In this document: positions 5,187 through 6,263 of the stretch, piece after piece
How the letters are laid out: the number at the start of each line of letters is the position of its first letter
How positions within the stretch are numbered: position 1 is the first letter of the stretch
IMG/VR virus record: IMGVR_UViG_2703718779_000017
Direction: 5' to 3' (one strand)
Origin: a virus
Taxonomy: Duplodnaviria; Heunggongvirae; Uroviricota; Caudoviricetes
DNA: 14,944 bases
Made by a program: the position numbers and the translations under genes
The notes under the pieces: generated by a model
Databases searched by the model: none
What the model saw: the letters and a program-made list of their open reading frames with translations, nothing else
What the model was told of the DNA's origin: nothing

Positions 5187-5223
5187 CAATAAAAAACTGT
5201 ATGCAATCAACAGTTTTTTATTG
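5187..5223. promoter_or_regulatory. Operator (OR-like): perfect 14-bp inverted repeat CAATAAAAAACTGT-N9-ACAGTTTTTTATTG in the cro/repressor divergent region
   Basis: Arms at 5187-5200 and 5210-5223 are exact reverse complements. An extra AACAGT half-site lies at 5233-5238. A TAAAAT -10-like hexamer at 5249-5254 is 7 nt before the repressor ATG, suggesting a near-leaderless transcript. Confidence 0.6.
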
Positions 5224-5260
5224 TGATGCTTTTAACAGTATTTACCTGTAAAATTGAATA

Positions 5261-5662
5261 ATGATGAGCGCCCTAGAAGTATCTATGTACAGAATCAGCA
5301 AGCTTCTTCAGGAAACTGGATGGAGCCAGGCTGAGCTTGCCCGTAGAATTGGTGTGACACAACAAACTGTTCAACAATGGGTCAGCGGTAAGGCTACACC
5401 TAAAGCCTCAAGTTTGGATAAACTGGTTGAGGTTTCAGGGCATCCATTGCATTGGTTTTTATTGCCTCCTGAAGAGTGTGAGCAAATTTTCACCCCTGAC
5501 ACGATGAAAATTGGTCCTCGCCAACGCGAACTGCTCCAAGCTTTTAGTGCGTTTCCTGAGGAAGACCAAGAAAAAATGCTTCAAGAAATCAAAGACAAGA
5601 AAAAATCAATGGAAGAAACCATTGCTAGGTGGCTGGCGGCACAAAAAAGCCGCCGGGCGTGA
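5261..5662 (+). CDS. Phage repressor, DicA/PaaR2-like HTH (XRE family); no S24 peptidase domain
   Basis: HTH (SQAELARRIGVTQQTVQQWVSG). Divergent from the cro-like gene and followed by the antitoxin/ParE pair, as in the three-component PaaR2-PaaA2-ParE2 systems of E. coli prophages. The true start may be ATG 5285. Confidence 0.8.
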   Translation: MMSALEVSMYRISKLLQETGWSQAELARRIGVTQQTVQQWVSGKATPKASSLDKLVEVSGHPLHWFLLPPEECEQIFTPDTMKIGPRQRELLQAFSAFPEEDQEKMLQEIKDKKKSMEETIARWLAAQKSRRA

Positions 5663-5689
5663 CCACAGTACAAGAAGAGGAGTTATGCC

Positions 5690-5881
5690 ATGGGTACAGC
5701 CCTTTCTCCGATAGTTTCAGAATTCGAAACTACCGAACAAGAAAACAGTTACAACGAATGGTTGCGCACTAAAGTAACGTCAAGCCTTGCAGACACTCGC
5801 CCCGCAATTCCACATGACGAGGTAATGGCTGAAATGGAAAATCTTATTGCTCAAATTGCTGTAACTAACAAGAGCGAGTAA
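5690..5881 (+). CDS. Antitoxin, PaaA2-like (63 aa) partner of the ParE-family toxin
   Basis: GAGGAG 9 nt upstream. Stop overlaps the toxin start (TAATG). The 63-aa size and acidic character fit PaaA2. Confidence 0.7.
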   Translation: MGTALSPIVSEFETTEQENSYNEWLRTKVTSSLADTRPAIPHDEVMAEMENLIAQIAVTNKSE

Positions 5882-6168
5882 TGTTACCCATTTTATGGCT
5901 ACCGTCTGCTCGCGATGATTTGCGCCAGATCATAACTTACATCGCCAAGGAGAACCCACCGGCAGCACGTAGACTAAAAATACGCATTGAAACATCGGTA
6001 TTACCTCTATCTGAGCATCCGTACTTATATCCACCAAGCGAACGGGTTTCTGGATTGAGAGAGATCGTGACCCACCCTAACTACATAATCCTGTACAGAG
6101 TAGCTGCTTCAAGCATTGAGATTGTAAGCGTGACACATTCTCGGCGACAATTTCCCTTCTCTATCTGA
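5881..6168 (+). CDS. parE: ParE/RelE-superfamily toxin (ParE2-like)
   Basis: ParE signature pattern (DL..I..YIA...P.AA...., GLREI....YIILYRV....IEIVSVTHSRR). Translationally coupled to the upstream antitoxin. Confidence 0.85.
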   Translation: MLPILWLPSARDDLRQIITYIAKENPPAARRLKIRIETSVLPLSEHPYLYPPSERVSGLREIVTHPNYIILYRVAASSIEIVSVTHSRRQFPFSI

Positions 6169-6187
6169 GTTGAACAATTTTCATACT

Positions 6188-6209
6188 CCCTCTTTCGAGG
6201 GATTTTTTT
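6188..6209 (+). terminator. Putative intrinsic terminator after the TA operon
   Basis: CCCTC-TTTC-GAGGG hairpin followed by A and seven T. The stem is only 5 bp. Confidence 0.45.
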
Positions 6210-6220
6210 GCCCAAAACAA

Positions 6221-6263
6221 CAATTAAAAACTGTTGACACAAAACAGTTTTTAATTGTAGATT
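6221..6263. promoter_or_regulatory. Operator (OL-like) 14-bp inverted repeat CAATTAAAAACTGT-N9-ACAGTTTTTAATTG with embedded TTGACA; putative PL for the rightward dicB operon
   Basis: Arms at 6221-6234 and 6244-6257 differ from the OR arms at one base. TTGACA at 6233-6238; the -10 is ambiguous (tgtaga/tagatt at 17-19 bp spacing). Confidence 0.55.

Follow-up and report, generated by a model that had tools for sequence, protein, structure and literature searches.

The 14,944-nt stretch of viral DNA analysed here (IMG/VR record IMGVR_UViG_2703718779_000017, Caudoviricetes), hereafter the window, carries at positions 5187-6263 what is very probably the immunity region, or lysis/lysogeny switch, of a lambdoid prophage of the Sp4/CP-933M type, with the toxin-antitoxin (TA) system paaR1-paaA1-parE1 lying inside it. 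The feature is real, correctly delimited and ordinary, and the system has already been published and is not new. The following genes are concerned.

5261-5662, plus strand: repressor gene paaR1, 133 amino acids, a short CI/DicA-type protein with a helix-turn-helix (HTH) domain and a helical tail; Sakai ECs_1069.
5690-5881, plus strand: antitoxin gene paaA1, 63 amino acids; Sakai ECs_1068.
5881-6168, plus strand: toxin gene parE1, 95 amino acids; Sakai ECs_1067.
4880-5152, minus strand: cro-like gene of the YdaS family (Pfam YdaS_toxin, 8e-10; PHROG transcriptional repressor, 1.3e-28).
4471-4896, minus strand: ydaT-like gene, a CII analogue (Pfam YdaT_toxin, 1.2e-9; PHROG "CII-like transcriptional activator", 2.4e-45).

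The identification starts from prophage Sp4 of Escherichia coli O157:H7 Sakai, with which the three plus-strand genes, the divergent cro/ydaT genes and the right operator region (OR) are nucleotide-identical over positions 5105-6320 of the window, save two changes in the downstream palindrome at the left operator region (OL). The three genes are 100% nucleotide-identical to ECs_1069, ECs_1068 and ECs_1067, which are annotated in Sakai as "phage repressor", "hypothetical" and "plasmid stabilization system protein", and many genomes of Shiga toxin-producing E. coli match the region at 100% over 2.3 kb. Sp4 is the Sakai counterpart of CP-933M of strain EDL933 (PMC2884950). The system paaR2-paaA2-parE2 sits on the cryptic prophage CP-933P and has a homologue on CP-933M (PMC8630535); for the paaR1-paaA1-parE1 system of CP-933M/Sp4, Hallez et al. 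2010 is the source cited in PMC8630535 and PMC4803016, and what is said below on the function of paaR1 and ParE1 follows these secondary citations. Each O157:H7 genome has exactly two paaA-parE places. Therefore, from the identity with Sakai Sp4, the equivalence of Sp4 and CP-933M and the two places per genome, the window carries paaR1-paaA1-parE1. The two systems are paralogous, and PaaA1 and PaaA2 do not cross-neutralise (PMC4803016). An initial annotation, made from the letters of the window alone, had matched the unit to PaaR2-PaaA2-ParE2; the type of unit and its gene order stand, but the system is the paralogue of the one named. The true PaaR2 system was recovered from strain BEC1 (locus L007) and phage Evi (L009), in which the repressor starts with MQKKE, as sequenced in PMC8630535, and PaaA is the PaaA2 of the Protein Data Bank (PDB). 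Aligned with this system, PaaA is 62% and ParE 67% identical, and PaaR1 shares 34% of its residues with PaaR2 overall, with 61% identity over the last 49 residues but only 16% in the DNA-binding domain. PaaR1 is an immunity type separate from PaaR2.

Formal searches bore out the initial description of the three proteins. The repressor matches only HTH families in Pfam (HTH_3, 2.3e-12), and no Pfam match to the peptidase S24 domain of RecA-stimulated autocleavage was obtained for its 133 residues. Its best relative in NCBIfam is DicA (PRK09706, 8.4e-14), a full-length alignment of residues 11-130 with positions 9-131 of 135, at 51.5 bits and thus under the curated cut-off of 101. PaaR1 is a DicA/PaaR-type short repressor and not a LexA-like CI. 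The best PDB match is the N-terminal domain of the 434 repressor (3e-5; BLASTP 1e-7); the PDB contains no PaaR structure, and the sequence matches of the repressor there are generic XRE/434 domains only. A single-sequence AlphaFold2 model (predicted local distance difference test score 80) has a five-helix HTH domain at residues 4-67 and, after a linker of poor definition, a tail at residues 86-132 built as helix, turn and long helix, and a fold search returned generic XRE domains, that of 434 among them. The antitoxin belongs to Pfam PaaA2 (PF21217, 5.6e-19, 68.3 bits against a cut-off of 27) and matches PDB PaaA2 (3zbe, 1.4e-20); it is a PaaA-family protein with no DNA-binding domain, encoded directly 5′ of parE. 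The toxin belongs to Pfam ParE_toxin (PF05016, 2.9e-17, 63.5 bits against a cut-off of 23) and matches PDB ParE2 (5cw7, 3e-36). The HTH gene is co-oriented with paaA and ends 27 nt before it, a gap first given as 28 bp, which, together with the PaaR2-like tail, makes it a PaaR-type upstream regulator. The stop of paaA and the start of parE overlap as TAATG, and a terminator follows, both as first described. Literature reports lend support to a toxic ParE that is specifically rescued by its cognate PaaA.

The predicted operators and promoters to which the argument refers are as follows; PR and PL denote the rightward and leftward promoters, and PRM and PRE those for maintenance and establishment of repression.

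5186-5200, no strand: OR1, ACAATAAAAAACTGT, between the -35 and -10 elements of the putative PR.
5210-5224, no strand: OR2, ACAGTTTTTTATTGT, centred 24 bp from OR1 and at about -44 from the putative PRM start.
5235-5249, no strand: OR3 candidate, ACAGTATTTACCTGT, overlapping the PRM -10 element and centred 25 bp from OR2.
6220-6234, no strand: OL2, ACAATTAAAAACTGT, abutting the PL -35 element.
6244-6258, no strand: OL1, ACAGTTTTTAATTGT, between the PL -35 and -10 elements.
5181-5210, minus strand: putative PR, with -35 TTGATT at 5210-5205, an 18-nt spacer and -10 TAGGCT at 5186-5181, assigned by eye.
5249-5261, plus strand: putative PRM, with -10 TAAAAT at 5249-5254, 6 nt and the repressor ATG at 5261; no Shine-Dalgarno sequence.
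6234-6263, plus strand: PL, TTGACA-18-TAGATT, a 10/12 sigma-70 match by a promoter scanner, enclosed by the downstream palindrome.
6187-6209, plus strand: terminator-like hairpin (6187-6202, 6 bp, G+C-rich) followed by T7, which would end the repressor-TA transcript.
4886-4903, no strand: YdaT box, TTGATTTTCATGAATCAA, at the cro/ydaT junction, spanning the cro stop and the ydaT start; candidate PRE operator.

The palindromes that bracket the unit lie where they had been placed initially, one upstream (CAATAAAAAACTGT-N9-ACAGTTTTTTATTG, 5187-5223, with perfect arms that reach 15 nt, 5186-5200 and 5210-5224) and one downstream (CAATTAAAAACTGT-N9-ACAGTTTTTAATTG, 6221-6257). When the window was randomised 300 times under a first-order Markov model, not one randomisation contained a perfect inverted repeat whose arms were 14 nt or longer and whose loop measured 3-12 nt. 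The base pattern of each 37-bp palindrome favours a reading as two 15-bp operators in mirror orientation, each fitting ACA(A/G)T-N5-(A/C)(C/T)TGT; an arm extended by one base is itself the dyad ACAAT-AAAAA-ACTGT. The "twin operators" of the initial annotation are thus operator-like at both places but undercounted, as each comprises two mirrored sites and a third OR site lies over PRM. Five matches to the pattern occur in the window, all at OR or OL, against 0.27 expected, a test that is circular because the pattern was derived from the same five sites. Loci L003 and L004, with 98% identity in the repressor and only 81-85% in the TA DNA, keep both palindromes intact. In L005-L009, which have other repressor N-domains, they are absent or different and other repeats stand at the same places, for example GTTTAGT in the PaaR2 locus L007. 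In this comparison the palindromes behave like operators, co-varying with the repressor's DNA-binding domain. This co-variation also bears on the extremely unlikely idea that the palindromes bind no protein and are instead hairpins in the RNA, terminators, or scars left by recombination where mosaic segments join. The scanner does call the OL palindrome terminator-like on the minus strand, and both palindromes lie near mosaic boundaries, but only 3 of the 16 pairs in the stem are G-C, a perfect TTGACA occupies the loop, and the same sequence stands between start codons that diverge, a place where one would not expect a terminator. As terminators, the palindromes were rejected for their A/T-rich stems and wrong position.

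An independent view of the operators came from a scan of genome contigs with the repressor as query, which returned a single locus, L013 of Arsenophonus triatominarum, the one locus on which this test is based. The L013 repressor is 48% identical overall and has the identical helix GVTQQTVQQW, and the locus has no TA. At its OR, the ACA-N9-TGT series ACAAGAAAATATTGT, half-site ACAATAAATTCTTTT and ACAAGATGATCTTGT (sites at 2419-2433 and 2468-2482, half-site at 2443-2457) has the 24/25-bp spacing of the window. At its OL, ACAATAAAATACTGT and ACAATTATTTATTGT (2966-2980 and 2989-3003) wrap TTGACA-18-TAAATT, so that the sites take the same places on PL as in the window. In all, the locus has 6 ACA-N9-TGT matches against 1.4 expected. 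These sites form no 37-bp palindrome, which suggests that the binding unit is the 15-bp site and that the palindromes of the window arise because two asymmetric sites are mirrored. The same observation tells against each palindrome being a single unit that a PaaR1 tetramer or octamer binds through the two 14-bp arms. That model, which would suit the perfect arms, the whole palindrome unchanged in L003 and L004, and the reported octamerisation of PaaR2 (PMC8630535), is improbable: with the same helix, Arsenophonus has 15-bp units at OR and OL and no large palindrome, the inter-arm spacer at OL is 10 nt in Sakai and 9 nt in the window, each arm is a 434-type dyad (ACAAT-N5-ACTGT), and a third OR site follows 25 bp on.

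Pairs of mirrored 15-bp operators, the preferred reading, find a model in phage 434. The recognition helix is TQQTVQQ in the window and TQQSIEQ in 434, and Q17, T27, Q28, Q29 and Q33 are kept in the window. In 434 repressor-operator structures, Q28, Q29 and Q33 read the ACAA half-site. The window likewise combines a Gln-Gln-x3-Gln helix with ACAA/ACAG outer half-sites, and in both phages these half-sites flank an A/T-rich centre. The 434 operators (OL657226) are 14-bp members of the same pattern, as seen when OR3 (ACAGTTTTTCTTGT) and OL2 (ACAATATTTATTGT) of 434 are set beside OR2 and OL2 of the window. In addition, the HTH of the cro-like protein and that of the repressor are 54% identical over helices 2-3, where both have QQ in the recognition helix (VAQQTVWQ in the cro-like protein), which fits competition of the two proteins for the same sites.

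Taken together, the divergent repressor and cro-like genes, the multiple putative operators overlapping PR and PRM and the second set at PL point to a lambdoid switch. On the minus strand, the OR elements run in the order OR2, TTGATT, OR1, TAGGCT, which is the PL layout. An alternative PR -10, TATAGT (5175-5170), was set aside for want of a usable -35 element and because it would encroach on the Shine-Dalgarno sequence of cro. PaaR1 is envisaged as a 434-like N-terminal HTH domain with a C-terminal helical oligomerisation tail and no RecA-cleavable domain, which would bind 15-bp operators, two at OL and three at OR, where the centres are spaced by 24 and 25 bp. With O1 between the -35 and -10 elements and O2 just upstream of the -35 element, both in PR (towards cro/ydaT) and in PL (towards ydfA-dicF-dicB), bound repressor would shut both lytic promoters. 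OR2, centred near -44 of PRM, could activate PRM, and OR3, over the PRM -10 element, would serve autorepression and repression by the YdaS-like Cro. As the PRM -10 element ends 6 nt before the ATG, the repressor mRNA is probably leaderless. The -10-N6/7-ATG geometry recurs in L005, L006, L007 (PaaR2) and L013, and leaderless translation of paaR2 has been shown experimentally (PMC8630535).

A further lambdoid element is a CII-like activator, the YdaT homologue, with a candidate site near the cro/cII junction. YdaT recognises TTGATT-N6-AATCAA, and in CP-933P the PRE operator OM takes the cro/ydaT-junction position (PMC9986795). The box in the window is a zero-mismatch match to this motif and the sole perfect one in the window; with up to 3 mismatches, 12 matches were found against 12.9 expected, i.e., chance, and the weaker flanking sites are not claimed. 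YdaT bound at this box would activate transcription of the PRE type across paaR1 and the TA genes. Repressor and TA genes probably form one operon, as indicated by the 27-nt gap, the promoter/terminator scan, which flagged no plus-strand terminator before 6187, and literature reports. The pair paaA1-parE1 would then be accessory cargo between the repressor gene and the terminator and OL, co-transcribed with the repressor, and could act as an addiction module penalising loss of the region.

The proposed roles of promoters, transcripts and addiction are carried over from experiments on CP-933P. There, PaaR2 is a CI analogue that is translated leaderlessly and binds the paaR2/ydaS intergenic region (Jurenas et al. 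2021, PMC8630535), YdaS and YdaT are the Cro and CII analogues, and a PL-type promoter 3′ of the TA genes is repressed by PaaR2 and YdaS in a bistable switch (PMC8630535). The suggestion of the initial annotation that one repressor controls both lysogeny and the TA pair agrees with the published model for CP-933P (PMC8630535, PMC9986795) and for that reason is not new. The paaR-paaA-parE genes were originally framed as a tripartite TA system (PMC4803016), from which one could take the regulator to serve an autonomous three-component TA alone, with the palindromes as operators of the TA itself. The co-inheritance of the PaaR C-terminal tail and the TA across variants would fit this. It is nevertheless very unlikely, because the downstream palindrome lies on the outward ydfA-dicF-dicB promoter and not on the TA, the upstream palindrome also covers the promoter of the cro-like gene, repressors of the same architecture, with the same operators, exist without a TA, the best NCBIfam relative is DicA, and the paralogue has been shown to be an immunity switch (PMC8630535).

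Several points weigh against the switch and operator model as drawn here. The sites are 15 bp and not 14 bp as in 434. Arg43 of 434 contacts the minor groove, and the aligned residue of PaaR1 is Ser, beside a one-residue insertion; with 15-bp sites and Arg43 not conserved, the 434 analogy may fail in detail. The recognition helix of L005 also has QQ and yet this locus seems to use different sites, so that QQ alone does not fix the half-site. PR is under the threshold of the promoter scanner and is deduced from its parallel with PL. OR3 has 3 mismatches to the arm consensus, and at that tolerance two other matches occur in the window besides it (1.4 expected), so that its support is positional; in the Arsenophonus homologue, the site in this register is perfect. 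Lastly, the coupling of toxin and immunity seems weak. In CP-933P, TA transcription occurs in either state of the switch without release of ParE2, and the region is addictive (PMC8630535). As the transcriptional state did not activate ParE2 in the paralogue, the coupling proposed initially would extend to transcription and addiction and not to toxin release.

Comparison with heteroimmune variants indicated how the region is assembled. Homology of the window to these variants ends at 4907-5003 (ydaT start and cro 3′ end) and resumes inside the repressor gene for the two types with the most divergent N-domains, at 5532 for L006 and 5597 for the PaaR2 loci, or near the start codon for the less divergent L005 (5264) and L008 (5291). 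These breakpoints suggest a specificity cassette of cro, OR and the repressor N-domain, whereas the PaaR tail and the TA are shared. Relatives lacking the TA run from the repressor straight to OL and the leader: Tritos (a 139-residue CI with a similar short tail), 640R1 (an S24-type CI), Actinobacillus pPE4 (a DicA-like repressor) and Arsenophonus. From these alignments, the TA appears to be cargo kept across immunity swaps. A bolder and rather doubtful proposal is that the PaaR C-terminal tail and paaA-parE make up one conserved cassette behind swapped DNA-binding domains, cro genes and operators. If so, the addiction module could enforce its own retention during recombinational immunity swaps, as hypothesised for immunity exchange in PMC8630535, or the tail could have a functional tie to the PaaA-ParE complex. 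Separately, PaaR1 would be a naturally occurring 434-like repressor whose specificity has shifted to operators of 15 bp. Two variants deserve separate mention. The L005 repressor is 66% identical and has the helix AQQSVQK; its repeats at OR and OL (1985-2060 and 3015-3070) seem different, CACTT(T/A)TAAAGTTA, and it retains a 15-bp ACACTTTTTTTATGT over the PRM -10 element in the register of OR3 of the window. Locus L008 (E. coli 06-00048, 1662-2459) has tandem PaaR-like genes, a 123-residue PaaR2-like and a 131-residue PaaR1-like one, 5′ of one paaA-parE pair, and may be a recombination intermediate between immunity types.

Beyond PL, three further elements belong to the outward operon.

6272-6444, plus strand: long untranslated leader that separates PL from the start of DUF1391/ydfA.
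7797-7848, plus strand: DicF small RNA (Rfam RF00039, 77 bits).
About 8025-8213: dicB, downstream of DicF.

With DUF1391/ydfA, DicF and dicB downstream, PL heads a Qin-type ydfA-dicF-dicB division-inhibition operon, which the repressor would also silence. The leader is near-invariant across all heteroimmune E. coli variants, a block of it (AAGTAGCCAGCCCGAGGC(G/A)TATGAACATGA(C/A)GGCA) is kept in Arsenophonus L013, and an Actinobacillus phage matches the leader at 76% identity over 148 nt. Positions 6272-6444 gave no Rfam match and no covariation-supported fold, and have no annotation in any phage record; a small open reading frame was rejected, as indels between variants shift the frame. The leader may be a nut/put-like or processing element.

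Over the entire immunity/TA unit, the window departs from Sakai only inside OL (Sakai locus L002, about 17345-17385, against window 6220-6258). Sakai has one extra A in the inter-arm spacer, which makes the PL spacer 19 nt long in place of 18, and a T in OL1 (the right arm) where the window has A; the two changes could tune PL strength or its repression. The chromosomal position also differs, for Sp4 lies at yccA and the window prophage instead adjoins another prophage with espK and tail-fibre genes. The match to a yccA-integrated copy in strain 97-3250 stops at 12493, just beyond the integrase, and 12494-14944 matches espK and tail-fibre genes of the neighbouring prophage. Genomes such as O103:H2 12009 and EH2252 contain the window as one contiguous stretch, which places the prophage in a tandem prophage array and not at the Sp4 site. 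Homologues of paaA-parE are present in 833 of 5,426 complete E. coli genomes, and TA genes at least 99% identical to those of the window in 437; among deposited phage genomes, only Evi, of the PaaR2 type, carries the toxin.

The discovery value of the region is small, as the locus is a named one and the concept of a TA in an immunity region is already experimental for the paralogue. What is added is the assignment to paaR1 and not paaR2, the 15-bp 434-like operator model with a third OR site and the view of the TA as retained cargo. Together these provide a concrete operator map for the PaaR1 immunity type and a clean prediction open to test, namely that a 15-bp site is read by a 434-like recognition code.

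Among the known systems, 434 shares with the window three OR sites, of which O3 covers PRM and the other two, O1 and O2, cover PR. Operator centres are 24-25 bp apart in the window and 22-23 bp in 434, the window repressor has no S24 cleavage domain, unlike that of 434, the repressor gene is followed by the TA pair in the window and by hex in 434, and PL drives ydfA-dicF-dicB in the window and N in 434. In lambda, cI-rexA-rexB likewise places accessory genes, co-transcribed with the repressor, between cI and OL/PL, an analogy drawn in PMC9986795; in CP-933P, paaA2-parE2 replace rexA/rexB and PaaR2 replaces CI (Prolic-Kalinsek et al. 2023, PMC9986795). The unit in the window lies between the divergent cro-like gene and a PL-like promoter, and so the initial placement of the TA in the rexAB position was right, although the cargo is unrelated, a ParE/PaaA addiction pair in the window and Rex exclusion in lambda. 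The DicA-DicC/dicB system of Qin also has a short repressor with no S24 domain, and both operons contain DUF1391/ydfA, DicF and dicB, but in Qin no TA separates dicA from the dicB promoter. The paralogous region of CP-933P has the same order of ydaT, cro-like gene, repressor, paaA, parE, terminator, PL and DUF1391 and shares the -10-N6-ATG leaderless geometry and the YdaT box motif. Its operators are of another kind, as PaaR2 has 18-bp repeats (consensus GTTTAGTAA), four of them at OR, whereas the window has 15-bp ACA-N9-TGT sites, three of them at OR.

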